Assembly: GCA_965249055.1 (NCBI GenBank)
Contig: CBDFKX010000002.1
Location: 3,212,134 to 3,276,133 of the forward strand
Source: Candidatus Aldehydirespiratoraceae bacterium
GTDB taxonomy: Bacteria > Actinomycetota > Acidimicrobiia > Acidimicrobiales > Aldehydirespiratoraceae
Direction of reading: 5' to 3'
DNA length: 64,000 nucleotides
Shown: positions 16,746 to 46,309 of the stretch, piece by piece
Layout: each line of letters starts with the position of its first letter
Position numbering within the stretch: the first letter of the stretch is position 1
Made by a program: the position numbers and the translations under genes
The notes under the pieces: generated by a model
Seen by the model: the letters and a program-made list of their open reading frames with translations, nothing else
Databases searched by the model: none
Told to the model about the DNA's origin: nothing

Positions 16746-16750
16746 GGAAT

Positions 16751-18460: not shown

Positions 18461-18499
18461 CCCGCCACCCAGCATCCAGCGATATAAAGTTGCGGGTCA

Positions 18500-18895: not shown

Positions 18896-18977
18896 GGGCA
18901 GACGAAGCCTCGGCGATCATCGATGTGGCGAACACCGGTAACACCGAACACCGCAGTGTGATCGCGTGGGGGTTCAG

Positions 18978-19122
18978 GTCGGAGGGGCGACACAAACCCC
19001 AAGTACATGGAACCCGTGGACCGGCGCCTACGAGGCTGCCTGAGGCAAAGCCCCTGGTCACGAGCACAGCCCTTAACCCACGCCACCGGAGCCGATGGCT
19101 CACGCTGGCGGCACCGGCGTGA
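18978..19122 (+). repeat. att-like/recombinase-tail motif copy A (plus second tail A2)
   Basis: GTCGGAGGGGCGACACAAACCCCAAGTACA similar to 41668; CCCTTAACCCACGCCAC 19070-19086 identical to 43075-43091. Confidence 0.6.
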
Positions 19123-19133
19123 CTCCCTGGTCG

Positions 19134-19451
19134 TCAGCAGTCCGCAAGCGCACGTAGTGCTCGGCAGATCTCGTCGACTTCCTCGATCTGGAGTTCGCCG
19201 GCCCGCTGCGTGAGAAACGAACGCCGTATCGGCTGCAGGTTGTCAAACGACGCCACACACTCCTCAGGGAGCCCGTGACTCGCGCTGAGTCGGACCTCCG
19301 TCGGAATCTGGCGAATGGTACGAGTCACTGGCGCGACGATGACCCACGTCAGCACTGGCACCGCATCGCTGCGTGTCACGATCAACACCGGTCGCCGTTT
19401 GTCCTCGGCTTCGGCCCACCAGACCTCGCCCTGCGTCGGCGTCACGCTCAC
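19134..19451 (-). CDS. mazF: MazF/PemK toxin
   Basis: QGEVWWA..KRRPVLIV..VAPVT..FDNLQ; GTGA overlap with antitoxin. Confidence 0.85.
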   Translation of the reverse strand: MSVTPTQGEVWWAEAEDKRRPVLIVTRSDAVPVLTWVIVAPVTRTIRQIPTEVRLSASHGLPEECVASFDNLQPIRRSFLTQRAGELQIEEVDEICRALRALADC

Positions 19452-19696
19452 CAAGGTTCCTCGGCGATCATCCGCACGGAAGACTCATCCGCCCACGCGA
19501 CCTCGGCGTCGCCTTGCGGACGCTCTCGATATCCGCGGGCGATTCGCGCCCCGATCTCATCGCGACGGCAGCGGTCGACAAGCTGTTCGAGACCAAGCCG
19601 CACCGCCTCGGAACGACTCGCAACGACTCCAGCCTCTACGAGCTGATCGACCGCAGCCGCAAGGTCGTCCTCTACCCGGGTCACCAGTTGCGCCAT
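19448..19696 (-). CDS. RHH/CopG antitoxin (MazE-like)
   Basis: MAQLVTRVEDDL..SRSEAVR..GYRERPQ..MIAEEPW. Confidence 0.8.
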   Translation of the reverse strand: MAQLVTRVEDDLAAAVDQLVEAGVVASRSEAVRLGLEQLVDRCRRDEIGARIARGYRERPQGDAEVAWADESSVRMIAEEPW

Positions 19697-19714
19697 GCAA
19701 ATAGCATAGATAAT

Positions 19715-19735
19715 TGCAATGCGTTTCGCAATGCA
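19715..19735. promoter_or_regulatory. imperfect palindrome, probable mazEF operator
   Basis: TGCAATGCG-TTT-CGCAATGCA (8/9) just upstream of antitoxin ATG. Confidence 0.45.
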
Positions 19736-19826
19736 CGCCAGCCACGACACAATATTCGGCCCCAACACGCATCGCGACACCCTCGCCGCCGCCCACCCTT
19801 CCGCCAACGCAACAGAGCCTGCGGCT

Positions 19827-20876
19827 TCACCTGCCCGGCGCTGAGAGCATCGCGTGTGCCTGCTCGATGAGGTGCGGCACATGTTCGCCGAGGCTGCCGA
19901 GTCGCTCGTCTCCGCTGTGACCATCAGCGAACCGTTGGTACAGCTGCTGGAGCACGACGGCGAGCTTCCACGTGGCGAACGCCTCATACCAGTCGACGTG
20001 ATCGACGCCGTGGCCCGCGGCTGCATACCGATTCACGAGGGCCGCTCGGGACGGGAAGCCTGACATGTCGAGGGCGATGGTTGGGGCCCGGTTGATCTCG
20101 TCGTCGGGATCTTGCCAGTAGCTCAGGAGGGTCCCGAGGTCGACCAGAGGGTCACCGAGCGTGGCCATGTCCCAGTCAAAGATCGACGTCACCCGATCGG
20201 GTTCACCTGACGCGAACATGCAGTTGTCGAACTTGAAGTCATTGTGAACCAGCGAAACTCGCGAGTCTCGGGGTCGGGCGGCGACGAGCCGGGTGTGCAC
20301 CTCATCGAACAGCGGAATCGGCCCTGCGTTCAGCCGTCGCCAACGTTCGTGCCAACCGGCGACCTGACGCTCGAGAAAACCATCCGGTCGACCCAATGTT
20401 TCCAACCCGGCGCTGGCGGGTTCAACCGAGTGGAACTCCGCGAGCGCGTCAATGAGCGCGTCTGACACCCGACGCTTCACGTTGGGCAGTCCAGCGAGCG
20501 ACTCGGGGAGGCTGTCTCGGACCACTTCGCCGCGACGGCGTTCGATCACGACAAACGGAGCACCGATTACAGAGAGGTCGTCGCAAAAAGCGAGCGCCCG
20601 GGGAGCACGATCGAATACCGGTGCGAGCCCGTTCAGCACTCGGTACTCCCGCGCCATGTCGTGTGCCCCAGGGGCGATCGTTCCGAAGGGCGGGCGGCGA
20701 AGGACAAGCTCCTGCCGGCCGAACGATACGCAGTAGGTAAGGTTCGCGTGCCCGCCGGTGAACTGCTTCGCCTCCATCTCGGAATCGAGACCCGGGAGGT
20801 AGCTGCGAAGCCACGCCTCGAGGCCCGCCCAGTCAAGGGGGTCGACCACTGGGGCCGTGTCGGTTGGGGAATCCAT
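19827..20876 (-). CDS. APH-family phosphotransferase (ACAD10/11 kinase-like)
   Basis: GGHANLTY, LRRPP, HNDFKFDN, DWDMATLGDP. Confidence 0.88.
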   Translation of the reverse strand: MDSPTDTAPVVDPLDWAGLEAWLRSYLPGLDSEMEAKQFTGGHANLTYCVSFGRQELVLRRPPFGTIAPGAHDMAREYRVLNGLAPVFDRAPRALAFCDDLSVIGAPFVVIERRRGEVVRDSLPESLAGLPNVKRRVSDALIDALAEFHSVEPASAGLETLGRPDGFLERQVAGWHERWRRLNAGPIPLFDEVHTRLVAARPRDSRVSLVHNDFKFDNCMFASGEPDRVTSIFDWDMATLGDPLVDLGTLLSYWQDPDDEINRAPTIALDMSGFPSRAALVNRYAAAGHGVDHVDWYEAFATWKLAVVLQQLYQRFADGHSGDERLGSLGEHVPHLIEQAHAMLSAPGR

Positions 20877-20892
20877 TGTCAGACGCAGGCTC

Positions 20893-21621
20893 CTACATCA
20901 GTGTGATTCCGCCGTCGACAAGCAGCATCTGGCCGGTGATGTACGACGCCATGGGTGACGCGAGGAACAGCGCCGCGTCCCCCATCTCCTCGGGCAGTCC
21001 CCATCGCCGCAGCGGGATCCGGCGGATGGTCGCGTCGTAGACGTCTGGGTCGTCGTGACTTCGGCGAGTGAGCTTCGTGTTCACGAAGCCCGGTGCGACA
21101 CCGTTGACCCGGATCCCGTCGCCGGCCCATGCATGGGCAAGGGATTTGGTCAACGTGACGAGCGCTCCCTTACTCGCCGAGTAGGCGGGCTGCCCGGGCG
21201 TGGCGACATAGCTCGACGTGGAACCGATCATCACCACGCTCGCCCCCTCGGTACTCGCGATCTTCGGGCGGAAAGCGGTGCACAGCGCCATCACACCGTT
21301 GAGGTTGACCTCTATGACCTTGCGAAACGTGTTGATGTCGAATTCGGCACCGCCATAAGCGACCGTTCCAACACTGGGAACCAGGACATCGATCTCACCG
21401 ATCTCCATAGCGAGCGGCTCTGCCCCTCCGGGATCGGTAACGTCGAGATGATGAAAGAGCAAGCCCTCCAGGTCGCTGTCCGAGTAATCGGCCGCGCGGG
21501 ATCGGGTGCCGGTGATGTGGACCCTGGCGCCGGCGGTTTCGAACCGTCGGGCAATGCCGAGGCCGATTCCGCTGCTTCCGCCGGCAACGAGGACGGTCCG
21601 GCCTGTGAAGTCGATCAGCAC
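20893..21621 (-). CDS. SDR oxidoreductase
   Basis: GGSSGIG, YSASK, NGVAPG, VDGG. Confidence 0.9.
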   Translation of the reverse strand: MLIDFTGRTVLVAGGSSGIGLGIARRFETAGARVHITGTRSRAADYSDSDLEGLLFHHLDVTDPGGAEPLAMEIGEIDVLVPSVGTVAYGGAEFDINTFRKVIEVNLNGVMALCTAFRPKIASTEGASVVMIGSTSSYVATPGQPAYSASKGALVTLTKSLAHAWAGDGIRVNGVAPGFVNTKLTRRSHDDPDVYDATIRRIPLRRWGLPEEMGDAALFLASPMASYITGQMLLVDGGITLM

Positions 21622-21652
21622 GGCGAGAGGAAGTCAGTCGTCGAGGAAATCG

Positions 21653-22099
21653 TCAGGAGCTCTCTAATCGGCTGATGACCTCAGCGACGACCTTGGCTCG
21701 CTCGCTGCTAGTTCCCGGCGCGTACGTCCGGTCGCTGATGATCACGCCGTCGGCATACTCGAGGACCGAGCACATGTTGATCCGGGTAACAGAGGAATCG
21801 GCGTCGTCGCCGCTGTACGTGCCACTCCAGACGCTCTCCACAACGACTGTGCTCCCGGAGACGATCCGCCGGGTCGCGGTGATCTGACGATCTGGATATG
21901 CCTCGAGCATCGCCGCCTCGATCTGCTTCACCCGTGCTCGGCCCTCGATCGTGTCCGAGTTGGCCATCGAGGTGACGACACAGTTCTCGGCGTAGCACTC
22001 GTCACACATACGCTGGGGATCCTCGTTGAACAGGCGCTCCCAGCGGAGGGTGGCGTCGTGGAGCGCGATCTCGTCCGGTGTCATTTCGTGTCGCGCCAT
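21653..22099 (-). CDS. SnoaL/NTF2-like protein
   Basis: CYAEN, IEGR, GSTVVVE, DGVI..DRTY pattern. Confidence 0.75.
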   Translation of the reverse strand: MARHEMTPDEIALHDATLRWERLFNEDPQRMCDECYAENCVVTSMANSDTIEGRARVKQIEAAMLEAYPDRQITATRRIVSGSTVVVESVWSGTYSGDDADSSVTRINMCSVLEYADGVIISDRTYAPGTSSERAKVVAEVISRLESS

Positions 22100-22116
22100 G
22101 TTCCCATCTCCGCGGG

Positions 22117-22806
22117 CTATTCGCTCGGCTCCGCGGCAACACCGCGGAGCAGGGAGGCCACGACCATCGTCACGTGCGAAACATCGGCCACGCCCCGCTG
22201 GCAACGACGGTACATCGAGAAGGCGCCGGCGTAGAGGAAGTCGACCGTTAGCACAGGATCGACCACGCGGAGCGAACCGTCCTCCATGCCATCGCGGACG
22301 ATCGTCAGGAGCCGGGCGCGCTGACGTTGGTCCTTCACCGTGATCTCAGCCCGGCGCTCCTCGCCCAGCGCGTACATCATCCGCAACGGGAGCGGCGGTC
22401 CGCCGGGTGCCTCGGCCAGCATCTGGCTGATGAAGGCTTGCAGGCGCTGCAGGCCGCTGCCGCGGCGCTCCTCCGCCATGTCGAGGTAGGCGTCGATCCG
22501 ATCGAGTGCACGGTCTGAGCAGACGAACGCCAGCTCTTCCTTGCTTCTGAAGTAGTGGTAAAGCGCATTGTTGGTGATGCCGATCTCCCGGGCGATGTCG
22601 GCCAACGACACTCCAGCAAACCCGCGCGTTTCGAACAGCGCCGACGCCACTGTGATGACGGCGTCGCGACGAGCGTTGAACTGTTGCGATCGCGCACCCT
22701 CCCAAGCCGTCCGGCCCTGAACGACGAGGGCTGGGACCCCGGTCTCGTCGCCCTCGAGGCCGGGGTCCTCTGCCGCGTGCGCTCGGGAGCTCCCGCCACT
22801 AGTCAT
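22117..22806 (-). CDS. TetR-family regulator
   Basis: LFETRGF..SLADIA..LYHYFRSKEEL. Confidence 0.88.
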   Translation of the reverse strand: MTSGGSSRAHAAEDPGLEGDETGVPALVVQGRTAWEGARSQQFNARRDAVITVASALFETRGFAGVSLADIAREIGITNNALYHYFRSKEELAFVCSDRALDRIDAYLDMAEERRGSGLQRLQAFISQMLAEAPGGPPLPLRMMYALGEERRAEITVKDQRQRARLLTIVRDGMEDGSLRVVDPVLTVDFLYAGAFSMYRRCQRGVADVSHVTMVVASLLRGVAAEPSE

Positions 22807-22921
22807 GTTCGGGTCTCTTGCTCTATTCCGCCTCTATTCCGCATCGGCGAGTCACCGGTCGGTCCCAGTATGGCTGCTACCGGCGTTTGGGGCGGGCAGT
22901 CCGTCGCCTTCATCGAGCGAA

Positions 22922-24451
22922 TCACCGCGCCTGGTCTCGGAGCACTCGCTTGAGGATCTTGCCCGTAGCGTTCCGAGGCAGCTCATCGATGAATACCACT
23001 GACTTAGGCACCTTGTACCGAGCGAGGTTGGCACGGCAGTGATCGACGACGGCCTGCTCGCTGAGTTGATGGCCGGGCTTGAGCATGACAAAGGCTCGCC
23101 CGACCTCCACCCATCGCTCGTCGGGGACGCCCACGACCGCGACCTCGGCGATTGCATCGATTTCGTAGAGCACGTTCTCCACCTCCGACGGATACACATT
23201 CTCGCCACCGCTGATGTACATGTCCTTCCAACGGTCGACGATGTAGTAGAAGCCATCCTCGTCACACCGTGCGGCGTCCCCGGTGTGCAGCCAGCCGTCG
23301 GTGATGGCCTCGCTCGTCGCCTCGGGGTTGTTCCAGTACCCAGGCGTCACGTTGAGGCCCCGGACCCACAGCTCGCCGGTCTCGCCGGGCGCGACGTCCT
23401 TTGCGTCGTCTCCGACGATACGTACCTCGTTGTGCACCGCCTCCTGTCCGGCCGAACCAATCCGGGTAGCGGCGTCGGCACGAGCGAGCGCCATCACTGT
23501 GGGGCTGGTCTCGGTCATGCCGTACACCTGCTGCAGCGCCACGCCCTTGTCCAACCATGTGTCGATGATGGTCGTTGGCGTAGGTGACCCGCCGACACTG
23601 ACACACTCGAGCGTCGGGAAGGTCGCGTCGGCGAAGTCCGGCTCGCCGCTCATCATCAGGAAGTTTGCCGGGACGCCGACCGTGTGTGTGATCCCGCTTT
23701 CGTGTGACCGAAGCACCGAGAGCGCCTCGGCCGGGTCGAAGGCAGGCATCACGACGTTGCACCCGCCGAAGTAGACGGCTGGATTCGCGAACAGGTTGAG
23801 CCCGGCGATGTGGAAGAGCGGGAGAAAGACGAGGTTGACCATCCCGGGGCGAAGCCCGAAGAACTCGAGCTGGTTCGCTACGTTCCAGAAGACCATCCCA
23901 TGGGTGATCATCGCCCCCTTCGGATTCCCGGTGGTCCCCGAGGTGTACATGATCAGCAGCGCATCGTCGTGGTCGACTTGCGTGGGAGCCGGCAGAGGCG
24001 ACGCTGCGGCGAGCGCTCCTTCATAGGAGAGCACCGGACCCTGGTCCGATCCGCCCCAACGGAGCCTCGGTGATGACCCGTGACGAATCGAGAGCTCCGC
24101 GGCCACGTCGTCTAGCTCGCTCCCATGGACGATCACGCTCGGCTTGCAATCGGACCAGATGTAGTCGAGCTCTCGCAGGGTCAACCGGCAGTTGGCGGGC
24201 ACCATGATGGCGCCGATAGCCGCGCACGCGAACTGCACCTCGAGGCAGTTCGTGGTGTTGTGGGCGAGCACCGCTACACGGTCGCCACGACCAACGCCGA
24301 ACTCGTCGGCGAGGACTGCGGCGAGCCGCGCCGCTCGTTCCCCGACTTGCGCCCAGGTGAACCTGCGTCCCGATCCGAGGTCGACCAGCGCCACCTGGTC
24401 GCCCCGGTTCCGCGCATGATGCGCCACCCAATCGTTCACTCGTAGCGACAT
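22922..24451 (-). CDS. acyl-CoA synthetase (AMP-forming)
   Basis: YTSGTTGNPKG, YGMTE, TGD, SGGENVYP, GKI. Confidence 0.92.
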   Translation of the reverse strand: MSLRVNDWVAHHARNRGDQVALVDLGSGRRFTWAQVGERAARLAAVLADEFGVGRGDRVAVLAHNTTNCLEVQFACAAIGAIMVPANCRLTLRELDYIWSDCKPSVIVHGSELDDVAAELSIRHGSSPRLRWGGSDQGPVLSYEGALAAASPLPAPTQVDHDDALLIMYTSGTTGNPKGAMITHGMVFWNVANQLEFFGLRPGMVNLVFLPLFHIAGLNLFANPAVYFGGCNVVMPAFDPAEALSVLRSHESGITHTVGVPANFLMMSGEPDFADATFPTLECVSVGGSPTPTTIIDTWLDKGVALQQVYGMTETSPTVMALARADAATRIGSAGQEAVHNEVRIVGDDAKDVAPGETGELWVRGLNVTPGYWNNPEATSEAITDGWLHTGDAARCDEDGFYYIVDRWKDMYISGGENVYPSEVENVLYEIDAIAEVAVVGVPDERWVEVGRAFVMLKPGHQLSEQAVVDHCRANLARYKVPKSVVFIDELPRNATGKILKRVLRDQAR

Positions 24452-24481
24452 CAGCGCTCGACCGTATTCATCAGACCGACC

Positions 24482-25363
24482 TCACGCCGGGCCAACCCGA
24501 CTCGCGTCGACACCGGACGTCTCTCGTTCTCCGACCTCGTTACGGAGCACGCCGATGCCCTCGATTTCGGCGACGAGGACGTCGCCGGGCTCGAGGTAGC
24601 CGTCGCCGCGCTCATAGGCAGTGCCCGCCGGCGTCCCAGTGAACAGGATGTCACCGGCGCGCAACCGGTTCCTTTCGTCCATGTAGGCGAGCAGCTCGTC
24701 GATGTCGAAGAGCACGTTCTTCGTGTTGTCTGTCTGGCGGAGCTCACCGTTGCGCGACAGCGTTATCTCCAGGGCCGGCTGACCTGGGCCGCCGAGCTCG
24801 TCCGGGGTCACGATCCACGGGCCGATCGGCGAGATCCCATCAGCCGCCTTCATCACGTACAAGTCGAAACCGCCGAGGGGTCCTGGAGCATCGCGGACGC
24901 TCATGTCGTTGCCGACCGTGTAGCCGAGCAGCGCAGCCGACGGAGCTTCGCCCGCCCGCAGAGGCCGACCGATCACGCCCACCAACTCCACCTCGTAGTC
25001 GAGCTGCTCGGTGTAGCTGGGATAGCGGATAGCCACCTCGGGACCGATGATGCTGGAGTCGACCTTCAGATAGGTGACGGGCGCTTTCGGTGGATCATCG
25101 AGGAATCCGGCGTCCCGCAGGTGTTCGATGTAGTTGCCGCCACAGGCAAAAACCCGGCCCGGCAGATCGAAAGGTGCGAGCACGGTGAGAACCTCGAGAG
25201 GTAGCGACTCCTCCGCCGTCGTCACCGCGTCGATCCCCTCGTCGACCACTAGGGGCGCCCACGCCGGTAGCGGGCCGGCGATGGCCTGTATGGAGCCGTC
25301 TGGACCCACGACACCCCAGAACGGTGTCTCGTGCCCTCCTCCGACGAACCGCCCGATCTTCAC
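24482..25363 (-). CDS. fumarylacetoacetate hydrolase family protein
   Basis: GGNY..H, DYEVEL, ND.SVRD, GDILFTGTP; GTG start overlapping upstream TGA. Confidence 0.88.
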   Translation of the reverse strand: MKIGRFVGGGHETPFWGVVGPDGSIQAIAGPLPAWAPLVVDEGIDAVTTAEESLPLEVLTVLAPFDLPGRVFACGGNYIEHLRDAGFLDDPPKAPVTYLKVDSSIIGPEVAIRYPSYTEQLDYEVELVGVIGRPLRAGEAPSAALLGYTVGNDMSVRDAPGPLGGFDLYVMKAADGISPIGPWIVTPDELGGPGQPALEITLSRNGELRQTDNTKNVLFDIDELLAYMDERNRLRAGDILFTGTPAGTAYERGDGYLEPGDVLVAEIEGIGVLRNEVGERETSGVDASRVGPA

Positions 25364-25839
25364 CCGTCGCTCTCGTGCTCGTCGGCTCCGCCTGACGGAT
25401 GCCTCGAGGGCGTCTGAACGTTGAACTTCGCTACGGCTACGACCTGGTCGTCGGCGTCGATCGCCTCCGCCGATACAACGACCCAACTCTTGCCATCGTG
25501 GCGCGGATGCAGCTCCCACACCGAAGCCTCGTACCGAACGGTCTGGCCGACCGGAACAGGTTTGGTGAACTTCGATTCCATGCTCGTGATTGCCGCGCCG
25601 GACTCACTCCAAGCTCGCGTGATGACGGACGCCATCTGCGACAGGGTGAACATGCCATGGATCACGGTGAGGGGAGTGCCCAGCACCTGTGCCCGTGATG
25701 CCCACTCTGGCTTCGTGTGCAGAGGGTTGAAGTCGAAGTGAGCCAGAGCCGTCTTATCGATGATTTCTTGCGTGATGGTCGTCTCGAATGCCGGCAGCTT
25801 GTCACCGATCTTCAGGTCCTCGAAATGCAGATCTGACAT
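25360..25839 (-). CDS. MaoC-family dehydratase
   Basis: DFNPLH, IHGM, KFTKPV..G hot-dog motifs. Confidence 0.85.
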   Translation of the reverse strand: MSDLHFEDLKIGDKLPAFETTITQEIIDKTALAHFDFNPLHTKPEWASRAQVLGTPLTVIHGMFTLSQMASVITRAWSESGAAITSMESKFTKPVPVGQTVRYEASVWELHPRHDGKSWVVVSAEAIDADDQVVAVAKFNVQTPSRHPSGGADEHESDG

Positions 25840-25852
25840 GTGTTCTTGCCCC

Positions 25853-26401
25853 TTACAGCGCTAGGAACCCGAGTATCTCGTCGCGGGACCTAGGCACCAG
25901 CAAGCGCAGGTGCCAAGTCGCCTTGAGAGTGCCGTGTTCGTTGTAGAAATCCCACTGGTCCTCGAGGTAGTACCGCCTACGACGAATCCACTTGTCCTTG
26001 TGGGTGATCCTGGCAGAGATCTCCTCCCCGACCTTGAACTGCTCGAAGAGCTCGATCCGCTGCCCGGGATTCGACGCCCCAGGCGTGCGGATCCAGCTGC
26101 CCATGCCGGTCTCAATGCAGTAGAAAGCGATTGGCACCACGAAGAGAGGGTGGGGAACGACGCCACCGTTCTGGCGTGCGTGATCGGCGTCGACCATCGC
26201 TGGGTCGGTCTCAAGCGAGGCGATGTTGAAGCTGAGGACGTCCTCCTCCTCGATCCGGAACGTCTGAGCGCCCTCGCCGGTCGCTCCGATTTCGATCTCG
26301 TCCCAGACCTCGTAGTCCTCGGCACCCTTGGCGAAGTCCCACTCGAACCGCCGCTGCTTTGCCGTCGAGGGGTACTGCTTCAACCGGTCGAGCTCGTTCA
26401 T
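25853..26401 (-). CDS. MaoC-like hot-dog protein (probable partner subunit)
   Basis: Hot-dog pattern GQRIELFEQFKVGE..DKWIRR..YNEHG; lacks canonical D..H motif. Confidence 0.65.
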   Translation of the reverse strand: MNELDRLKQYPSTAKQRRFEWDFAKGAEDYEVWDEIEIGATGEGAQTFRIEEEDVLSFNIASLETDPAMVDADHARQNGGVVPHPLFVVPIAFYCIETGMGSWIRTPGASNPGQRIELFEQFKVGEEISARITHKDKWIRRRRYYLEDQWDFYNEHGTLKATWHLRLLVPRSRDEILGFLAL

Positions 26402-26594
26402 GTACTCCTCGTTTCAGCACGTGTGCCTTGCGCCCGGCTGTGGACTGTCCGGTCGCCTTGGCTATAGGTCAAGCTGCGCTTGTTGGTACCCAGGTCGAAG
26501 TTGGGTCGCTTGATAGACCGATTGTATCGTCACGTAGTAGCCAAGCAAGTGGCGTCGCTTGTGGCGATGGTGACATCCACCTACGTTTGTTCGT

Positions 26595-26897
26595 GTGATC
26601 CGTCACATTGTGGTGTTCAGGTTCGAAAAGCACGTGACGGCAGAAGCGCAAACTCAGCTGCTCGGTGAGCTCGCTGAATTGCCAGATCGGTTTCCGAACA
26701 TGTTGCGGTTCGCTATTGGTCAGAACCGAAGCGTGCGTGACGATCGTTTCACTCACGCGCTCTCTACGGAGTTCCATGACTTGGACACGTTGAACGCATA
26801 CTTGAGCAGTGCCGAACATGACGCATTTGTCCGGGATCGTTTCACTCCATTGATCGCGGAGCGAGCCATCGTGTCGTTCAGCGACGACCGGGGCTGA
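26595..26897 (+). CDS. Dabb (stress-responsive A/B barrel) protein
   Basis: MIRHIVVFRF..F..LNAYL...H. Confidence 0.8.
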   Translation: MIRHIVVFRFEKHVTAEAQTQLLGELAELPDRFPNMLRFAIGQNRSVRDDRFTHALSTEFHDLDTLNAYLSSAEHDAFVRDRFTPLIAERAIVSFSDDRG

Positions 26898-26925
26898 TCC
26901 CGACATCCATCCCGCAACCGGATGA

Positions 26926-27240
26926 TCAATCGCTGGCTGGCAGAGGCGTGGCGCCCTTGGCGTGGAGGACTTCGCCATCGACTGCAGGGAGGCCTTCGCC
27001 CGCGGAGATGCACAGCAGCTCCACCGTCCCCGCCGTGTTGACGTAGCGCTTGCCGAGCAAGGAGCCACCGCCGTGCCCATCGACGATGTCGTTCCCGGAG
27101 GGTGCGCCCGTCTCTTCGGCCGTTGGCGGGGCACCGCCAATCATGGCGTCGATCGGTTCGGCGGGCGTCTTCACCGCGATCATGATGGTCGAACAGACCG
27201 TGCTGCACAACCGCCCACCGACTTCGATCACGGTCGGCAT
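26926..27240 (-). CDS. small hypothetical protein
   Basis: AAGGAGG RBS; STVCST..LGKRY..ELLC..GEG..PLPASD. Confidence 0.65.
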   Translation of the reverse strand: MPTVIEVGGRLCSTVCSTIMIAVKTPAEPIDAMIGGAPPTAEETGAPSGNDIVDGHGGGSLLGKRYVNTAGTVELLCISAGEGLPAVDGEVLHAKGATPLPASD

Positions 27241-27301
27241 GCGATTCCTCCTTCGCTGGCGCAACTCACCGTCGCGATGGCGACAGCGCAACGGTTCGGC
27301 A

Positions 27302-28516: not shown

Positions 28517-28580
28517 GAGACTCTCCTCTACTGTGACCCGCGACCAGGTCGTTTCCGAGCGACGCTAGTCGACCGATGAA

Positions 28581-29426: not shown

Positions 29427-29472
29427 CGCACTATCAAGAGGTCGGTACCGCCCCGATCGACCCGGCACGCGC

Positions 29473-30669: not shown

Positions 30670-30675
30670 GGCTCG

Positions 30676-32538: not shown

Positions 32539-32641
32539 TCGTCAGGAGGCGGGTCTCATCCCACGCGGTTGGGTTCGTAACGTCGTCGGCGAGATCGAAC
32601 TCGCGTTGAGCGGGCAGACGGATCCGGCCCTGGGAGGCGAA

Positions 32642-33790: not shown

Positions 33791-33847
33791 CGTCTTGTCT
33801 CCTATGTAGGTGTGCCCGGCACTTTACCAGGTTTATGGTTATCAGGT

Positions 33848-36555: not shown

Positions 36556-36563
36556 CGGCCCCG

Positions 36564-37457
36564 TCAGAACGCCGCGGGACCCGGGACGCGGACGCGGCAC
36601 CGGTAAAGTGTCGTGCTGGCGCAGATGTACAGCGTCCGCATATCGTCGTCTCCGAACGCGAAATTCGCCACGGGCTCTGGCACCCCCAGCACGCCGAGGC
36701 AGATCGCGTCCGGGTCGAACACGTGGATCCCGCCTGGACCGGTGCAATAGAGGTTTCCGGCCTGATCGAGCTTCATCCCATCTGGATGACCGTCGCCCTC
36801 GCCGACGGTGGTCGCCCAGACGCCAGCGTCGTCGAACCGGTCGCCGTCGCGGACGAACCGGCGGATGTGATCCTTCGCCGTGTCGTTCACGTAAAGCGCC
36901 GTCTCGTCCAGCGAGAAGCACAGGCCGTTGGGCAGGTCCAGATCAGCTGACACCAAGGCCGGTTCGTCATCTCCCGGCTGGAGCCCATAGACCCCACAGA
37001 AGTCCAACTCGAGCTCCCGGACCACCCCGAACCCTTCCACAGTGCGACCGAATGGCGGATCTGTGAAGTACACGCCACCCCAGGACGACACGACCACGTC
37101 GTTGGGACTGTTCAGGCCCTTACCGCCGAATGACTCCGCCAAAACCTCGATCGCACCGTCGTCGTTCTCCCGCACCACTCGGCTCGTCCCATGCTCGCAG
37201 GTAACGAGACGGCCCGACCGGTCGTAGGCGCTACCGTTCGCGTGGTTGCTTGGCTCCCGATAGACGGCCGCCTGCCCGTTGGACCATGAGTGCATCGTGG
37301 AGCCAGGGATGTCGCTGAAGACGAGGTCACGGCGGGCCGGATGCCACACCGGTCCCTCGAGGAACCCGAATCCGCCGGCCAGTGCCTCGAGCGACTCGTC
37401 GCCGACCACGTCGTCGAAGCGAGCGTCGCGCCTCTCGTTCAACGCTGCGTTATCCAT
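36564..37457 (-). CDS. SMP-30/gluconolactonase family protein
   Basis: EGPVW, FSDIP, NSPND, PNG, PDGM. Confidence 0.9.
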   Translation of the reverse strand: MDNAALNERRDARFDDVVGDESLEALAGGFGFLEGPVWHPARRDLVFSDIPGSTMHSWSNGQAAVYREPSNHANGSAYDRSGRLVTCEHGTSRVVRENDDGAIEVLAESFGGKGLNSPNDVVVSSWGGVYFTDPPFGRTVEGFGVVRELELDFCGVYGLQPGDDEPALVSADLDLPNGLCFSLDETALYVNDTAKDHIRRFVRDGDRFDDAGVWATTVGEGDGHPDGMKLDQAGNLYCTGPGGIHVFDPDAICLGVLGVPEPVANFAFGDDDMRTLYICASTTLYRCRVRVPGPAAF

Positions 37458-37942
37458 TTCGATCCACCCCTCTGACTACGGTCGACGTGGTCGACCTGCT
37501 CCAACCTGAACTGCGGGAGGCCGACCTGGGCGTTGACGTCCCTGAACTCAACCTCAACCGTCGCCCCGACGGCGAGCGGGGCGTCCGGGCCGTCCACCAA
37601 CGTGGCCGCGTACAGCAACCCCTCCTGGTCTTCCAGTTCCACCAGCGCATGAACCCAGGGCTCAGGGCCAAACCCTCGAACCATCGCGTCGTGAACTACG
37701 GTCCAGTTCACGAGCCGTCCGCGACCGGTGACCTCCTCGTAGGCGAACGCCGGCTCGTCGACGCGATGACATGTGCCGCAGAAGTCAACCGCCGGATGGG
37801 CGAACGTGCCGCAATGGCAGCACCGCTGGAAGGTGAGTCGATGCTGAGCGGCAGCTGCCCAGAAGGGTGCGCTCATTTCGTCGGGCTGCGGCACGGGGGG
37901 GTCGGCCCGTCCAACGGGCTCGGGAACCGGGCTATCGGACAT
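37439..37942 (-). CDS. DUF35 Zn-ribbon/OB-fold protein
   Basis: PFW..QRCCHCG..HP..CGTC, GRG, ALVELEDQ. Confidence 0.85.
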   Translation of the reverse strand: MSDSPVPEPVGRADPPVPQPDEMSAPFWAAAAQHRLTFQRCCHCGTFAHPAVDFCGTCHRVDEPAFAYEEVTGRGRLVNWTVVHDAMVRGFGPEPWVHALVELEDQEGLLYAATLVDGPDAPLAVGATVEVEFRDVNAQVGLPQFRLEQVDHVDRSQRGGSKWITQR

Positions 37943-37965
37943 GCCACGTACCTCGCCTTCGAGGG

Positions 37966-39663
37966 TCAGCCGGTGCCGTGTCGGAGTAGCCGGCCGGGGA
38001 GGTTCCCCGTGGGTTCTCCGTCCACGAAGGTGGTCTGACCGTTCACGAGCACGTGCTTGTAGCCGTCGGCTTTGCGGATGCGGCGCCACTCGCCCTCAGG
38101 GAGGTCGTAGGCGACTTCTTCATCGAGGAGCTTGAGCCCCTCGAAGTCGTACACTATTACGTCGGCCCAGGCGCCCTCGGTCAGGGTGCCACGGTCATGG
38201 AACCCGGCGGTCTGGGCGTGCAAGTTCGACAACCGCCAGTGCGCCTCCTCGAGCTCCACGACGCCGCGCTCACGCACGAACTTGATGATGCCCTCGGTCG
38301 GATATGAGCCCATGGTGATGAACTTCGTGTGAGCCCCGCCATCTGACACACCCCACAGCCCGTACGGCATCGTGGCCAGCTCGTTCTCGACCACCGGGTC
38401 GCTGTTCGTGTGCGGCACCTGAAACAACGTCTTGAGCTCGTCGGCCACAACCATGTCCAACAGCAGGTCGACCATGTGGTCGTACCCCAGGATTCGGCAC
38501 GCATCAGGCAACCTCGTGCCCTTGACCGGCAAGAACTTGTCCGTAAACGTCCGCAGGATCGTCACATTGTCCAACACGAAGATCGTCGGCACGTTGTCGC
38601 GCAACCCCGAACGCCTTGCTGGATCACCCAACTTCGCAAGCCGCTCAGCAGTAGAACCCAGGGTCGCCTCACGCCACTCCTCGACCTCGTCCCACATGTT
38701 CCACTCTTCGAACGTGAAGGTGAACTCCTCACCAGTGGTGATCATCTGGGGAGACACCTGAATGCCACGTTCCCGGCAGCTACGGATCCAGTCCATCGCG
38801 TCGTGATGCAGGTCCGAACGACCCGGGAAACTCCCGATTGCGTTGTGCAACACGATCCCACCCGACTCGATCGCCAGCTGCTCCAGATGGTGGCGATCGG
38901 ACTCCACCCCATCGGGGGTGCTCATCGCGATCTGAATGAACGTGTGATCGAACTCTGCCAACACCCGAGCGAACGCCAACGCCGTGCGGTTCGACATCAG
39001 ATCACTTGCGAATGGCGACCCGTCGTAATCCCGCTGCACATCCAAACCACCACCCGGCGCAGTGACCTGCGCCGACCAGCCGCATGCACCGGCACGCATC
39101 CCCTCACGCAACAGATCACACAGACGCGCGAGCTCCTCATCAGTCGTGTCCCGAGACTTGGCCGCCTCCAACCCCATGACGTGCACGAGCAAGGGGTTCA
39201 CCGGCACATACGTCAACATATTCAGACCCTTGGGCCTGGCATCCAATACGTCCATCCACTCCGGGAACGTCTCCCACGTCCACGGCAAAGCCGCCTCGAT
39301 ACACACCGCCGGGATCGCCTCCACCCGGCTCAACGACTTCATCAAATACTCACGATCCTCGGGCTTTGCTGGCGCAAAACCGAACCCGCAATTCCCGATC
39401 GCGACCGACGTCACCCCGTGCCAACCCGAGATCGTGCAATACGGATCCCAGAACAACTGCGCGTCATAATGCGTGTGCAAATCCACAAAACCAGGCGCAA
39501 CGATGAGATCCGACGCATCGATTACCTCATCTGCCTCACCCCGCGACACTCGCCCCACCTTCGCGACCCGACCATCCTTGATCGCCACATCCGCGCGGCG
39601 ACGCGGCAGATTCTGACCGTCAACGACGATCCCATTCGCAATCACCGTGTCGTAAGATGCCAT
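37966..39663 (-). CDS. N-acyl-D-amino-acid deacylase-like amidohydrolase
   Basis: APGFVDLHTHYD, GNCG, SDGGAH, DRG..G..AD. Confidence 0.88.
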   Translation of the reverse strand: MASYDTVIANGIVVDGQNLPRRRADVAIKDGRVAKVGRVSRGEADEVIDASDLIVAPGFVDLHTHYDAQLFWDPYCTISGWHGVTSVAIGNCGFGFAPAKPEDREYLMKSLSRVEAIPAVCIEAALPWTWETFPEWMDVLDARPKGLNMLTYVPVNPLLVHVMGLEAAKSRDTTDEELARLCDLLREGMRAGACGWSAQVTAPGGGLDVQRDYDGSPFASDLMSNRTALAFARVLAEFDHTFIQIAMSTPDGVESDRHHLEQLAIESGGIVLHNAIGSFPGRSDLHHDAMDWIRSCRERGIQVSPQMITTGEEFTFTFEEWNMWDEVEEWREATLGSTAERLAKLGDPARRSGLRDNVPTIFVLDNVTILRTFTDKFLPVKGTRLPDACRILGYDHMVDLLLDMVVADELKTLFQVPHTNSDPVVENELATMPYGLWGVSDGGAHTKFITMGSYPTEGIIKFVRERGVVELEEAHWRLSNLHAQTAGFHDRGTLTEGAWADVIVYDFEGLKLLDEEVAYDLPEGEWRRIRKADGYKHVLVNGQTTFVDGEPTGNLPGRLLRHGTG

Positions 39664-40061
39664 GCTTTGATCCTCGTGCTTTTGAGGTGTATCACTATGC
39701 AGCTGCCGCCGCTCCGCGTACAGTGAGGAGACTATACCGGGGATGTCAGCACCTGTACATAGGGATCCGTTGGCGTCCCGCGGCTAGACGCCGAGCCGAG
39801 ATCGATGCCGTAGCCGTGAGGGTCAGCCCAGCGAAGAGCGCAAGGCCGCTGGTCGAGTCGCGCCGTCGGACCTGGGTGCTGGGACCGAAAACGAGGTCCT
39901 CAAAAGGTCCGCCGCGTTCTTGGCTCCGGAGAACTTGCGCGTCGCTGCGCCGGCTGATCGGTCGCCCGGGTGAGCCACGAGATTCGACACGCCGACGGTG
40001 TCTCCCGCGATCGCTGGAAATCTGGGCCCACAAGAGCCCCCAAAAACGAAGCCAGCGCGGG

Positions 40062-40484
40062 TCAGGCCCGGCCCTTCACACTGACTTGCTTCCGGATGAA
40101 CTGCCAGCGGGTGCCATCCCACCGCAGTTCATCGTCGTAGTGGGCGAGCGCCAAAATCTTCGGCGCATCGTCCACCACGTCGGTGAAGAGAATGTCCGCC
40201 GAGGAGGTGCCCGTATTGCCGTCGACCTTGATCAGGTGGTTGACCAGCACGTGCGTGCCGGAACCCTGCAGCTCCTGGGCAAGCCCGGCCACGATGGCCT
40301 CCCTCCCTCGCCACTGGTCACCTGTCGGCATGACGAAGACGGCATCCTCAGCGAAGTGAGCGCCGATCGCGTCGAGATCACTTCGGTCCATTGCATCGGC
40401 AAAGGAGCTGATGAGCTGACTCGCCGCACACGTCCGGCACGCGTCTGGCGCCGGTGGCTTGCCATCGCTGACTCCGTTTGACAT
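40062..40484 (-). CDS. SnoaL/NTF2-like protein
   Basis: HFAEDA, GREAI, THVLVN, HYDDEL..WQF. Confidence 0.75.
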   Translation of the reverse strand: MSNGVSDGKPPAPDACRTCAASQLISSFADAMDRSDLDAIGAHFAEDAVFVMPTGDQWRGREAIVAGLAQELQGSGTHVLVNHLIKVDGNTGTSSADILFTDVVDDAPKILALAHYDDELRWDGTRWQFIRKQVSVKGRA

Positions 40485-40537
40485 CTGCTGTCCTCTCGTC
40501 CTCTTGAAATCGCTCTCGCACGGTGCGATGAGGAGGC

Positions 40538-40577
40538 ATTGTTAAAGGACCTGACAACGAAGTCAAGGAATTGACTT
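40538..40577 (-). promoter_or_regulatory. sigma70-like promoter with overlapping palindromic operator
   Basis: Minus strand TTGACT-N17-AACAAT; perfect IR AAGTCAA-N4-TTGACTT at 40560-40577. Confidence 0.55.
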
Positions 40578-40887
40578 GGTACCAGTCCCTTGGCGTGGTG
40601 GGGTTTCGGTCCGGGTCCACCGTGGGGTGAGTCACCGGCGTGAGGCTCGGTGTGTAACTACCAAATTGCACACCAAGGAGACCACGTCGATGACTCTGTC
40701 TGCGTCTGCCATCAACGAATTACTTGCCGTTCTCGATCAGGGCGGCGGTGCCGATCTGGTTCGTCAGCTCGCCCAGTTCGGGATCCAGGAACTGATCGAG
40801 GCCGAAGCAACCGAGGCGATCGGCGCGGCGGTGTGGGAACGGGCGCCGGATCGGGTGACGCATCGCAACGGCCACCGCCCCCGAACC
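40578..40887 (+). mobile_element. IS256-family 5' remnant
   Basis: ATG 40690: QELIEAEATEAIGA..ER..RNGHRPR, cut at 40888. Confidence 0.75.
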
Positions 40888-41224
40888 TGTGCGGGCCCGA
40901 AACTCGGTCGTGTCCATTGACCAGGCACAACGCGGGCCGATCAGAGAAGCTCCATGTTTCGTATCTTGTGCCGTTCTCTCGCGTCGGTGGCACGTTTGGC
41001 TGTTCGTTCGGGCCGCTCCAAGGATCTCGAGATCATCGTCTTGCGTCACCAACTCGGCTTGCTGAACCGACAGTTGGACCGACCTCAACTCGCCGACGAC
41101 GACCGGACCCTGCGCGGCGCGATCGGTCAGGCCCTGCCCCGCTGCCTGCGTACGGGTTCGCTGGTGAGTCCTGACACGTTCCTGCCTTGGCATCGTCGTC
41201 GAGTCGCCCGTCGATTGGGGTGGG
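40888..41224 (+). mobile_element. IS481-like (rve integrase) 5' remnant
   Basis: TGT end similar to 43948; KDLEIIVLRHQL..WHRR. Confidence 0.7.
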
Positions 41225-41593
41225 TCAAATGGCGAACCCTGTTCCGGCGGTGCGATAGGCCTCTCGCGGGGGTGCGAAGATGTCGAGGATCTTCGCACCG
41301 GTTGGGCCGGCGATGAAGCCGTGTTCGACGTCGCCCGGCGTGCACCAGAAGTCGCCCTTTTCGACCGGGACCTCCACACCGTTTTGCATGCGGACGCCGC
41401 TGCCTTCCAGCAGTACCCCCCATTGTTCCTCTGCATGACCGTGGACTGTGCCTGCGCTGTGCGGGGCGAGGGTCACGACAGAAAGCATGGCGCGCTGGCC
41501 GACGAAGACTCGGGTGGCGATGCCGGGGGCCAGGGTGCGGGCGATACCTTCGCTCAGATCGTCGAGGTTGAAGAAGTTGTCGGGTCGGGCCAT
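41225..41593 (-). CDS. cupin domain protein
   Basis: AGGAGG RBS; HGHAEEQ..G, PGDVEH, DIFAPPRE. Confidence 0.85.
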   Translation of the reverse strand: MARPDNFFNLDDLSEGIARTLAPGIATRVFVGQRAMLSVVTLAPHSAGTVHGHAEEQWGVLLEGSGVRMQNGVEVPVEKGDFWCTPGDVEHGFIAGPTGAKILDIFAPPREAYRTAGTGFAI

Positions 41594-41667
41594 GTTGGTG
41601 TGTCCTCCTGTGGTGCCGAGTCGAGGCGCGCTCAGCAGCGTCGAGCGGCACCGAGTAGCAATTTCGT

Positions 41668-41842
41668 GTCGGACGGGCGAGTCTAACCCAAAGTACACGC
41701 GCCCCCTGGAGAATCGAGCTGGCCGCTGCATGAGCGTTTTGCCTGGTCAGAGGCTCACGGCCGCACGCGTGGGGGCCCGGGCTATGACCGCATGAGCCCA
41801 ACCACAGAAAATCTGACAGACCCGCTGGAGGCGGCGGCCTGA
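41668..41842 (+). repeat. att-like/recombinase-tail motif copy B (plus second tail B2)
   Basis: GTCGGACGGGCGAGTCTAACCCAAAGTACA; 21-codon tail ending AAA-stop as in copy A; CCGCTGGAGGCGGCGGCCTGA resembles end of copy C. Confidence 0.6.
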
Positions 41843-41881
41843 GGCCCAGCTCACGACGCCGCCAGATCCGAGACTCGCCGA

Positions 41882-41901
41882 TGTAGCACAGACGTGCTAC
41901 A
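41882..41901. promoter_or_regulatory. palindromic operator of vapBC-like pair
   Basis: TGTAGCAC-AGAC-GTGCTACA perfect IR 9 nt before ATG. Confidence 0.6.
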
Positions 41902-41910
41902 GTCCAAGTC

Positions 41911-42144
41911 ATGAGCACCACGACCGTCCGACTCGACGACGAGGACGAAGCCCTCCTCGACATGCTCGCACCTGAATACGGAGGGCGCTCCAGTGCGATC
42001 CGCCAAGCCCTCCGCACCCTCGCAGCCGATCGGAAACGCCGGAACGCCCTCAACGCGTTCCTCGCCGAATGGGACACCGAAGAAGGTCCGATCGATGAGG
42101 AAGCCGTCGCCGCGATGGCCGAACGATACGCCTGTGATTCTTGA
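41911..42144 (+). CDS. RHH/CopG antitoxin (VapB-like)
   Basis: MSTTTVRLDDED..GRSSAIRQAL; upstream of PIN gene. Confidence 0.75.
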   Translation: MSTTTVRLDDEDEALLDMLAPEYGGRSSAIRQALRTLAADRKRRNALNAFLAEWDTEEGPIDEEAVAAMAERYACDS

Positions 42145-42508
42145 CGCCGCGTTCCTCATCTCGATCGATCGAAGCGAGCGCACCGCCCACGCGTTCCTGA
42201 CTGCTGCCAGCAGATCCGAAACGGATCTTCACACCACCGACCCCGTCGTAGCGCAGGTGTGGCGGAACGGATCCCGACAAGCCCGGCTCGCGGCATTCCT
42301 CAAGACCATCTCGATCCACCCACTTGATGACGGTCGCCCAGTCGGACAGCTTCTCGCTCAGACCCAAACAGCAGACGTCGTTGACGCCCACCTGGTGATC
42401 ACCGCCCTTCGCCTCGGCGACGACATCCTCACCGGCGACCCCGACGACCTCGCGACCCTCAGCGCAGTGCTCGGCCCAGCAACGCCCGCCGTCCACGCGT
42501 GGCCGTGA
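42134..42508 (+). CDS. PIN-domain toxin (VapC-like)
   Basis: VILDAAFL, VVAQVWR, DVVDAH, ILTGDPDDL. Confidence 0.8.
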   Translation: MILDAAFLISIDRSERTAHAFLTAASRSETDLHTTDPVVAQVWRNGSRQARLAAFLKTISIHPLDDGRPVGQLLAQTQTADVVDAHLVITALRLGDDILTGDPDDLATLSAVLGPATPAVHAWP

Positions 42509-43055
42509 ACCCCAGTTCCCGAGGGTTCACCGTTCGGTCCTCGCTCTAGGCCCAGCTGGCGGTCGAGATCCTCGACGACCCGGCGCGGGATCCGCTCACG
42601 AGTTCGCACCGACAGTTCTGAACAAACCTCCCCCACCCCGCATCCAGCGTTGCCCATCGACTGTTCACACTCACGCAGGATCCGGCTCAGGCACGATGAT
42701 CTCCTGGAAGTTCCAGTAGCCACGGACCGAGAAGACGCTCGCGACCCCACCCGGTGTGAACCGCATGCTCGGGCACCTCGATGCCGATGAGCTGGCGGCC
42801 GCCGGCAAGAAATACCAAGAGGTTCTCGACGCAACCCGACGGTACGAGTCCGAGTCCGGATTCGATCCTGCACTGCCGGACCGGACGATCGTCTCCCAGA
42901 CGGTTCCTTCGGCCGTGAGGGGTCGCGCTACGCAGTGACTCGTCGCGCACTTCTCGCCTTGACGTCTGTACGCCCCCACCTGACACAAACGAGTTGGTCC
43001 GGCCGTGGACGTTCCCCTGTCATCTGCATTGCGCGCAGATCGAAAACCTGTTCGT

Positions 43056-43127
43056 GTCGGAGGGGGGAATGCAACCCTTAACCCACGCCACGGCAGCGGC
43101 TGGGTCCCGCTACCGGAGGCGGCCTGA
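43056..43127 (+). repeat. att-like/recombinase-tail motif copy C
   Basis: GTGTCGGAGGGGGGAATGCAACCC (from 43054) matches complement of the tRNA-Val 3' end at 17/24; encodes VGGGNATLNPR..EAA-stop. Confidence 0.6.
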
Positions 43128-43176
43128 ACCGGTCCCCCGGATACGACTCGCACGGCAGCCCGCATCGAGTGAGACC

Positions 43177-43204
43177 TTGGCAATTGTTGCCAAAGCGCTA
43201 TACT
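43177..43204 (+). promoter_or_regulatory. parDE promoter/operator
   Basis: TTGGCAA-TTG-TTGCCAA palindrome; TTGGCA-N16-TATACT 7 nt before ATG (leaderless). Confidence 0.6.
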
Positions 43205-43211
43205 GGTGGTC

Positions 43212-43445
43212 ATGACCACGATGAACGTGTCACTCCCAGACGAACTCAGGAGCTTCGTCAATTCCCAGGTCAACCATGGCAACTACGGATCGACAAGCGA
43301 ATACGTGCGCGATCTAATCCGCCGCGACCACGACCGCCGCCAACTCCGAACCGCACTGCTCGAAGGCGCCCGCTCCTCCATCGCCGGCCCCGCCGACGCC
43401 GCCTACTTCGCATCACTCAGAGCCCGAGCCGAAACCGACAGCTGA
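43212..43445 (+). CDS. parD: ParD-family antitoxin
   Basis: MNVSLPDEL..YGSTSEYVRDLIR..LLEG. Confidence 0.88.
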   Translation: MTTMNVSLPDELRSFVNSQVNHGNYGSTSEYVRDLIRRDHDRRQLRTALLEGARSSIAGPADAAYFASLRARAETDS

Positions 43446-43455
43446 GCACACACCA

Positions 43456-43782
43456 GTGCAAGCCGACATCCGCGCCCTCGCCGCAACCGACATCGAGGCC
43501 GCGGTGACCTACTACCGCTCCGAAGCCGGCCCCACAACCGCGCTCGACTTCGTCAACGCGCTTGAAGCCGCGATCAACCACCTCTGCCAACATCCGCTCA
43601 CTGGATCGCTCAGATTCGCCTTCGAACTGGAGATCCCAGATCTGCGGAACTGGTCCCTCCAGAAGTTCCCCTACCTCATCTTCTATGTCGCCGAAGACGA
43701 CCGCATCGACATCTGGCGCGTCCTACACGCCCGACGAGACATCCCGGCCTACCTAGCGCCAGACCCACACCCACCGGGGTGA
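43456..43782 (+). CDS. parE: ParE/RelE-family toxin
   Basis: A.DIE..YY, HP..GS.R, FPYLIFY, IWRVLHARRDI. Confidence 0.88.
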   Translation: MQADIRALAATDIEAAVTYYRSEAGPTTALDFVNALEAAINHLCQHPLTGSLRFAFELEIPDLRNWSLQKFPYLIFYVAEDDRIDIWRVLHARRDIPAYLAPDPHPPG

Positions 43783-44640: not shown

Positions 44641-44663
44641 CTCTGACCTGGTATTATGCATTG

Positions 44664-46195: not shown

Positions 46196-46309
46196 GCTGC
46201 CTCACGGTCCGGTGTTGGTTGGTTACAGAAGAACAAAGATACGCTATCGCCCGCTCTTGTTCGCTTCGCTCACCGGGCCGCTCGGGCCACGGGTCGCTAG
46301 CCTTCAGAG

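Follow-up and report, generated by a model that had tools for sequence, protein, structure and literature searches.

Orphan recombinase tails in a Candidatus Aldehydirespiratoraceae genome: probable scars of serine-recombinase islands at tRNA-Leu(GAG)

Genomic islands lodged in tRNA genes are, in textbooks and by the programs that search for such islands, assigned to tyrosine integrases. The subject of this paper is a set of three short, co-oriented elements, here called copies A, B and C, in a 64,000-nt stretch of the genome of a Candidatus Aldehydirespiratoraceae bacterium (Acidimicrobiales; assembly GCA_965249055.1, contig CBDFKX010000002.1, positions 3,212,134 to 3,276,133; hereafter the window), each of which joins a piece of a tRNA 3′ end, the core, to a start-less open tail of 21 to 23 codons. 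These copies are, with high probability, the junction scars of islands that were inserted into the 3′ end of tRNA-Leu(GAG) by large serine recombinases (LSRs).

The closest published case, as far as the accessible sections of the paper go, is that of the ssrA islands of Dehalococcoides (McMurdie et al. 2011, PMC3146451), where the 3′ end of the gene for DsiB, a serine recombinase of ~540 aa, always overlaps the island junction and its stop codon is set by the neighbouring sequence. The 3′ end of the target recurs there in tandem direct repeats, islands that lack integration genes are read as cis-mobilisable, and the authors suggest that the recombinase gene may be complete only on the circle or beside the fragment of another island. 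Integrase genes that extend across attP are described, for phage Mx8 IntP and for SSV-type integrases, in the accessible part of the Islander paper (PMC4383910, citing Tojo et al. 1996), by whose account no tRNA gene was known, as of 2014, to be a target of the serine family. Nothing on this point is said in the available sections of a 2026 study of integrase prospecting (PMC12884075), and a search of open-access full text yielded no report of serine recombinases that act at tRNA-Leu or occur in Acidimicrobiia, a result that is not proof of absence.

All three copies stand on the + strand exactly where an initial annotation of the window, made from its letters alone, had put them (18978, 41668 and 43056), and in one frame they give the peptides it had reported, of 21, 21 and 23 codons, each closed by a stop. 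That annotation had asked whether the core matches the 3′ end of a tRNA, leucine or valine. Over 10-12 nt the cores are identical to, and co-oriented with, the complement of the tRNA-Leu(GAG) 3′ end, and this gene is the best of 48 tRNAs in alignment (scores of 30, 28 and 37 for A, B and C, against 16, 16 and 25 for tRNA-Val(CAC)); leucine is thus the right choice, and the likeness of copy C to tRNA-Val is a generic resemblance of T-arms. The source tRNA-Leu(GAG) of this 3.59-Mb genome (G000; other G numbers denote genomes of relatives and L numbers fetched loci) lies at C2:2445062-2445149, after secG. Attached to it is a 22-kb island, which is terminated by a 26-nt direct repeat of the tRNA 3′ end and whose genes are 68-76% nucleotide paralogues of those at 22-40 kb of the window. 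A profile scan of the kind the annotation had proposed, with a profile built from relatives' copies into which copy A may have entered during iteration, ranked B (E 2e-24), A (E 5e-11) and C (E 4e-4) above every other hit in the genome, with tRNA-Leu(GAG) and the 26-nt repeat coming next.

Two further observations concern the same sequences. Another orphan copy of the tRNA-Leu(GAG) 3′ end occurs outside the window at G000:C2:492002, far from any tRNA-Leu and beside IS-type genes. The motif CCTGGTCAGAGG that stands behind tails (for example at 41742-41753 of the window) has an inverted partner, CTCTGACCAGG, ~12 nt before many cores, and at the tRNA-Leu of G000 the two halves adjoin as a hairpin just downstream of the tRNA (G000:C2:2445150-2445200), which could be a terminator or a protein-binding site.

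The genes to which such tails belong are found in relatives. In the 14 and the 11 longest cases, what can be read in frame upstream of an orphan copy is junk, apart from two loci, L081 and L133; L081 is a decayed copy in which a recombinase-like C-terminal remnant is fused in frame to the tail. At L133 an unrelated, real-looking open reading frame (ORF) is cut at the core, in frame with the tail; by eye it resembles the PLD-like N-terminal part of a helicase, and the locus may represent insertion into a protein-coding gene. Because the readings upstream of orphan copies are junk, genuine tRNA-Leu(GAG) loci were examined, the gene being present in 292 of the 301 genomes sampled from the order. 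At one of these loci, L154, the frame is open to the end of the contig and looks like the coiled-coil end of a serine integrase, and a 130-aa piece of it used as a query gave matches in 36 of the 301 genomes and none in G000 (both tallies include six genomes flagged as unpublished, on which no specific claim rests). The 20 loci that were then fetched contain eight ORFs, of 486-627 aa, whose last residues before the stop are ...VGGGT or ...VGEGT, and five of these eight stop inside a tRNA-Leu called by ARAGORN. Resolvase, Recombinase and Zn_ribbon_recom domains are all present in 8/8 full-length ORFs tested, five of them from the VGGGT set and three that lie beside tRNA-Leu(GAG) and end in other frames or otherwise. 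Such an enzyme is encoded in 15 of 107 genomes of the family, three of them with the gene located at tRNA-Leu(GAG); the recombinases of other family members read antisense into tRNA-Val, Pro, Met or Ser. The family search also added three ORFs with endings of the VGGGT or VGEGT kind.

Intact islands set the position of the core within the gene. The one in G356 has a 562-aa recombinase gene that ends in the tRNA and, 13.2 kb off, a second core followed by a 20-codon tail; since its junctions have 17 nt in common and then diverge, excision would add 15 residues to the protein. G395 holds two islands in tandem, and there the outer recombinase gene crosses a core into the inner island, with a shared block of 12 nt. 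Because the junctions of intact islands share only such short blocks (12-17 nt), the crossover can be placed within GTGTCGGAGGGG, and the element supplies only the last few bases of the tRNA. Since the genes read antisense into the tRNA and stop there as ...VGGGT, with the displaced tail at the opposite end of the island, the crossover site falls inside the recombinase gene, at VGG. The full-length genes of relatives thus bear out what the annotation had proposed, namely that genes for large serine recombinases end in such tails, with the att core inside the gene at (R)VGG. A separate case is L166 (G313:C8:90000-105000), where two complete tRNA-Leu(GAG) genes stand 8.7 kb apart, one beside a decayed C-terminal remnant of a recombinase and the other beside a junk frame.

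Orphan copies recur within the order, and their tails are conserved. Sequences 75-88% identical to the first ~95 nt of copy B are present in other genera of the family (22/107 genomes), and an exact 18-mer of copy B occurs in 76 loci of a species-level genome collection, nearly all of them in Acidimicrobiales assemblies; the same 18-mer has no match in the viral contigs of IMG/VR. In relatives the copies form arrays. In G096 the order pgk-tpi-secG-tRNA-Leu(GAG) is followed by at least six co-oriented copies over 32 kb, G083 has one copy 45 nt from tRNA-Leu(GAG), G107 has three copies ~1 kb apart that enclose a vapBC pair and a mazEF pair on a contig with no tRNA, and in G019 two copies are followed by vapBC and parD. 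All copies are co-oriented, in the window and in the arrays of relatives, as is expected of the serial integration and start-less tails that the annotation had envisaged. Counted from GTC GGA to the stop, the tail has 21 codons in 69 and 23 codons in 7 of the 87 non-redundant copies from the 18-mer loci; in an alignment of relatives' loci and the window, 23/41 rows have 21 codons, and five of the 41 are the tRNA itself or its exact repeat, which yield five codons. The stop is TAG in 43, TGA in 35 and TAA in one of 79 tails, a tryptophan stands at a fixed position in 66 tails, and the tail ends in Ala-Ala in 57 of the 79. Tail types that diverge in nucleotide sequence, as in copies A and C, preserve the length, the tryptophan and the ending. 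Over 20 gap-free rows there is no internal stop and pN/pS is 0.62, a value that 6 of 200 column shuffles match or undercut.

Clean evidence that cores are exchange points comes from congeners. The segment that starts at the first base of core A and extends to core C (18978-43068), here called island W, is collinear with G012, a genome also labelled Candidatus Aldehydirespiratoraceae, and the collinearity ends at 43068. The same sequence starts exactly at 18978 in G012 but has a different left flank: there the 24.1-kb segment stands between tRNA-Leu(GAG) and the 22-kb paralogous island. In G000 the tRNA-Leu is joined directly to the 22-kb island via an identical flank, and the 24.1-kb segment stands between a truncated ABC permease gene and the C tail with parDE. 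At the tRNA-Val locus of G012 the homologous transporter operon continues without an island for ~4 kb, as far as tRNA-Val, and that genome lacks the C tail and parDE. In G012 the 30-nt right-arm flank before core C runs into an intact tRNA-Leu; in G015, which has its left (A) junction in common with G000, it is joined to an A-type tail. In all three genomes the breakpoints fall exactly at cores. Contigs of independent public sequencing runs were also compared with the window: those of X17 and X6 leave its sequence at 43050-43068, at core C, so that the rearranged junctions which the annotation had suggested looking for occur both in relatives and in public runs. Over the whole of 40500-44690 the window is matched by a contig of X15, a run that could be the source sample itself.

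Since G012 holds all of 18978-43068 at its tRNA-Leu, the difference between the two genomes is a relocation, and since their backbones are only 89-96% identical (99.7-100% in the island), the island is younger than the split between the two lineages. Copies A and C, which had been annotated as separate small cassettes, are thus the two ends of one composite, recombinase-less island with B inside it; B is the seam between its 22.7-kb and 1.39-kb parts, and the extra tails that the annotation had also noted, both of which are present (19066-19122, with an exact 17-mer in common with copy C, and a remnant that ends at 41842), are older nested scars. A gene with the Recombinase domain (PF07508) is absent from G000, G012, G015 and G096; as G000 has neither such a gene nor a match to the L154 piece, the copies are orphan scars and not an active element, although they have been used recently. 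Because an island with no recombinase moved precisely from core to core, a recombinase supplied in trans must have acted. An inversion of 810 kb between G000 and G012 with its ends in cores was also considered and was ruled out by the absence of the C tail and parDE from G012 and by the presence there of the whole of 18978-43068 at tRNA-Leu. A smaller variant lies within the island: one X6 contig lacks exactly 41842-42547 (706 nt, with the vapBC-like genes), between 10-nt repeats. The pair is thus a presence/absence variant, and in G023 the module occurs twice, at 86-87% identity.

These features can be assembled into a model in which the final codons of the element's recombinase gene contain its attachment site and the LSR would catalyse recombination at the core, with crossover within the 12-nt GTGTCGGAGGGG. 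On the free circle the gene would end in a tail of 21-23 codons. After insertion the gene body would lie beside the tRNA and stop after five codons read antisense from the T-loop (...VGGGT), and the tail would be left at the opposite end of the island, beyond the displaced tRNA end. With each new insertion older islands would be pushed outward, and as recombinase genes decay, co-oriented start-less tails and loss-resistant cargo, often toxin-antitoxin (TA) pairs, would be left. The segment 18978-43068 has been transferred, precisely at the cores, between tRNA-Leu(GAG) and scar C, an older one that lies near tRNA-Val, probably towards the latter.

Several points weigh against this model. No intact recombinase with a B-type tail was found among the 87 copies or the 41 rows, which yielded one remnant only, and none of G000, G012, G015 and G096 has an LSR to which the movement of the island could be assigned. 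All the genomes are metagenome assemblies, in which mis-joins at repeats are possible; to set against this worry, the X15 contig agrees with the window over 40500-44690 and G015 has the same A junction. The coding signal of the tail is modest, one antisense frame giving a pN/pS of 0.66, though with four stops. Finally, ~30 nt behind the stop, including CCTGGTCA, are conserved as DNA, so some of the constraint on the tail is not at the protein level. We read the tail as being under a real but weak protein-level constraint to which a DNA-level constraint is added.

A bolder proposal, which we regard as possible and rather unlikely, is that the tail is no by-product and has a function in the enzyme that depends on the state of the DNA. 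The protein would be full-length on the excised circle or beside the orphan tail of another island and clipped to ...VGGGT at the tRNA, and orphan tails would be kept as landing pads and as donors of a C-terminus. The full-length form would bear the conserved tryptophan and an Ala-Ala end that resembles the degradation tag of the G000 tmRNA, which ends in ...LVLAA. If the proposal were true, recombinase-less islands laden with TA genes would be movable in trans, as island W was.

The scars were annotated as lying beside TA modules, and with mazEF and parDE this is correct above Pfam cut-offs. The module behind copy B is vapBC only weakly, with an RHH-like antitoxin at 4e-4 to 7e-4 and a PIN match at an E-value of 0.0042 (18.1 bits, below the Pfam cut-off of 23.6); BLASTP of this PIN-like ORF against a PIN protein of G019 gave no match. 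For 35 sites with 1.5 kb on both sides, 72 right-side and 76 left-side ORFs were scanned; two further left-side ORFs had already been covered with the right-side set. TA families occur at nine loci (at one of them weakly), on either side of the copy. PIN or PemK accounts for 9 of the 148 ORFs near scars, against 22 PIN and 8 PemK matches in the 3.59 Mb of G000, an enrichment of about ten-fold per kb in a comparison that is made across genomes, is uncorrected for relatedness and includes some overlapping sites. The predicted enrichment of TA pairs is therefore present and is neither universal nor confined to the downstream side: 26 of the 35 sites have no recognisable TA gene within 1.5 kb, and other cargo near scars includes regulators, SnoaL and cupin genes, monooxygenases and transporters. 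Addictive pairs may simply be what outlasts the decay of an island.

These figures bear on the annotation's wider suggestion of an integron- or shufflon-like array. An integron-like platform, in which the tails would be maintained sites where a trans-acting recombinase reshuffles small and mostly TA cassettes, would account for the cassettes of 1-1.4 kb with a single TA pair between copies (B-C in the window, G107 and G019), for the precise movement of a recombinase-less island at cores and for the conservation of an element of ~95 nt across genera. We nevertheless consider it improbable: the arrays have neither a recombinase nor a promoter at one fixed end, four of the five array-bearing genomes checked have no LSR, and the cargo is, as just seen, mostly not TA. 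Intact elements, moreover, carry their own recombinase at the tRNA-proximal end, and for this reason the arrays are explained by tandem accretion and decay. Nor is there inversion of the shufflon type, since all copies are co-oriented.

A second alternative, to which we give very little credence, is that the copies are scars of ordinary tyrosine-integrase islands and that the tail is open only by coincidence, through shared descent. Such islands typically show tandem arrays and direct repeats of a tRNA 3′ end, according to the accessible part of the Islander paper (PMC4383910), and at L120 a tyrosine integrase gene lies within 1.5 kb of a copy; against this, an LSR reads into the core at intact islands in 8/8 tested, the identity blocks are short (12-17 nt), and divergent tail types retain the length, the tryptophan and the stop. 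Least probable of all is a cis-regulatory RNA or leader peptide of TA modules, which the position of B and C 70-180 nt upstream of their TA pairs and in the same direction might suggest, and to which are opposed the convergent mazEF on the opposite strand beside A, the many sites with no TA gene nearby or with one on either side, the congener breakpoints at the core and the absence of any Rfam match at the copies (gathering thresholds over the whole window; E-value mode over 18900-19200 and 41600-43200). By the Rfam models the copies are likewise neither pseudo-tRNAs nor members of known RNA families.

The features of the window that belong to LSR-scar accretion are collected in Table 1. A Pfam scan of 39 ORFs between 15.6 and 46.6 kb found no recombinase gene, in agreement with the annotation. 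Besides copy B and the vapBC-like pair, island W carries, by Pfam, a catabolic and ABC-transport cluster of 20 kb as well as a Mutator fragment and a cupin gene, and the layout also includes an IS630-type transposase upstream and an IS3-like fragment after parDE. Read in the frame of C, the remnant at 19066-19122 is a C-type tail that lacks its first codons; mazF starts 12 nt past this second tail of copy A. The right arm before core C probably represents the last codons of the lost recombinase gene of island W.

Table 1. Coordinates of the copies and neighbouring features in the window (positions are those of the 64,000-nt stretch).
Feature	Position	Strand	Description
Truncated ABC-transporter genes	17330..18961	+	Solute-binding protein and N-terminal part of permease; abut the left junction
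Copy A	18978..19043	+	Core (complement of tRNA-Leu(GAG) 3′ end) and A-type tail, 21 codons, TGA; distal junction of the 24.1-kb island
Composite island W	18978..43068	+	24.1 kb, without recombinase; collinear with G012 at 99.7-100%
Truncated C-type tail remnant	19066..19122	+	No core; older scar nested behind copy A; exact 17-mer in common with copy C
mazEF-like pair	19134..19705	-	PemK toxin 19134-19454 (Pfam 3.1e-14), RHH antitoxin 19448-19705 (RHH_1 4.7e-5)
Copy B	41668..41763	+	Core, B-type tail (21 codons, TGA 41731-41733), conserved arm ending in CCTGGTCAGAGG; internal junction of two accreted units
Further tail remnant	41800..41842	+	Ends ...EAAA and stop; aligned with the end of copy C
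Two-gene toxin-antitoxin-like module	41911..42508	+	RHH-like gene 41911-42144, weak PIN-like gene 42134-42508
Right arm of island W	42984..43055	+	~24 open codons upstream of core C, ending ...RVGG
Copy C	43056..43127	+	Core and C-type tail, 23 codons, TGA; putative older scar into which island W inserted
parDE pair	43206..43782	+	Pfam ParD 4.4e-8 (TIGR02606 5.2e-17), ParE 4.3e-13; ~80 nt past copy C; absent from G012
tRNA-Val(CAC)	44663..44737	-	Single tRNA of the window; bystander, not source of the core

Some other features of the window and of its genome are recorded here for completeness. The IS630-type insertion at 15590-16943 (transposase 15587-16879) is missing from an otherwise collinear stretch of G015 and has ~70% paralogues elsewhere in G000, one of them inside the 22-kb tRNA-Leu island. 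A repeat of ~48 nt at 46241-46293, which looks to be of REP or MITE type, is repeated at least a dozen times around the genome (88-98% identity), and one of ~170 nt at 3010-3190 has five others at 85-88%. Neighbouring genes at 53295-56414 are mutually paralogous, with 67-76% nucleotide identity. The genome also has a tRNA-SeC gene.

If the reading of the copies as LSR junction scars holds, it would mean that a clade of LSRs targets tRNA genes across Acidimicrobiales, contrary to the usual assignment, and that recombinase-less islands with catabolic genes and TA pairs still move between sites. The split gene would give the enzyme a different C-terminus in each state of the DNA, which could be a simple switch of direction or of stability. 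Orphan tails would serve as easy sequence markers for old insertions, and as serine integrases are sought as tools for genome engineering, a tRNA target conserved across an order would be useful.

The design as such is already known from one case that targets tmRNA; what is new is the true tRNA target, the conservation of the tail across an order, and comparative evidence that a recombinase-less island moved from core to core. Integrons and shufflons resemble the present arrays in their co-oriented, repeated sites between small cassettes and in the frequency of TA cassettes; unlike them, the arrays have no tyrosine recombinase of IntI or Rci type, no attI and promoter platform and no inverted sites, and their sites are fragments of a recombinase gene. 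The four PF00589 genes of G000 lie at 1.10, 2.02 and 2.10 Mb, a long way from its arrays. With Mx8 IntP and the SSV integrases the likeness is confined to a gene that runs across attP, since those enzymes are, in the available text, tyrosine recombinases and the enzyme here is an LSR. Cis-mobilisable elements, a concept cited in the accessible part of PMC3146451, are att-bounded, recombinase-less, arranged in tandem and moved by the enzyme of another element, as would be the case here, where the evidence for movement is comparative only, one island at two att sites in congeners. Accretion of this kind also has examples in Streptococcus. The ssrA islands of Dehalococcoides come closest, sharing a serine recombinase gene that overlaps the junction, tandem arrays and islands with no recombinase. 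As far as the available sections of that paper describe them, they differ in their target (the T-loop of the tmRNA gene with a 20-bp repeat, against the acceptor and T-stem of tRNA-Leu(GAG) with a 12-17-nt block); the Dehalococcoides element also includes a second small recombinase, DsiA, and a six-gene module. The overlapping end in Dehalococcoides is divergent and its function is doubted by the authors, whereas the tail described here is conserved in length and in sequence across an order.

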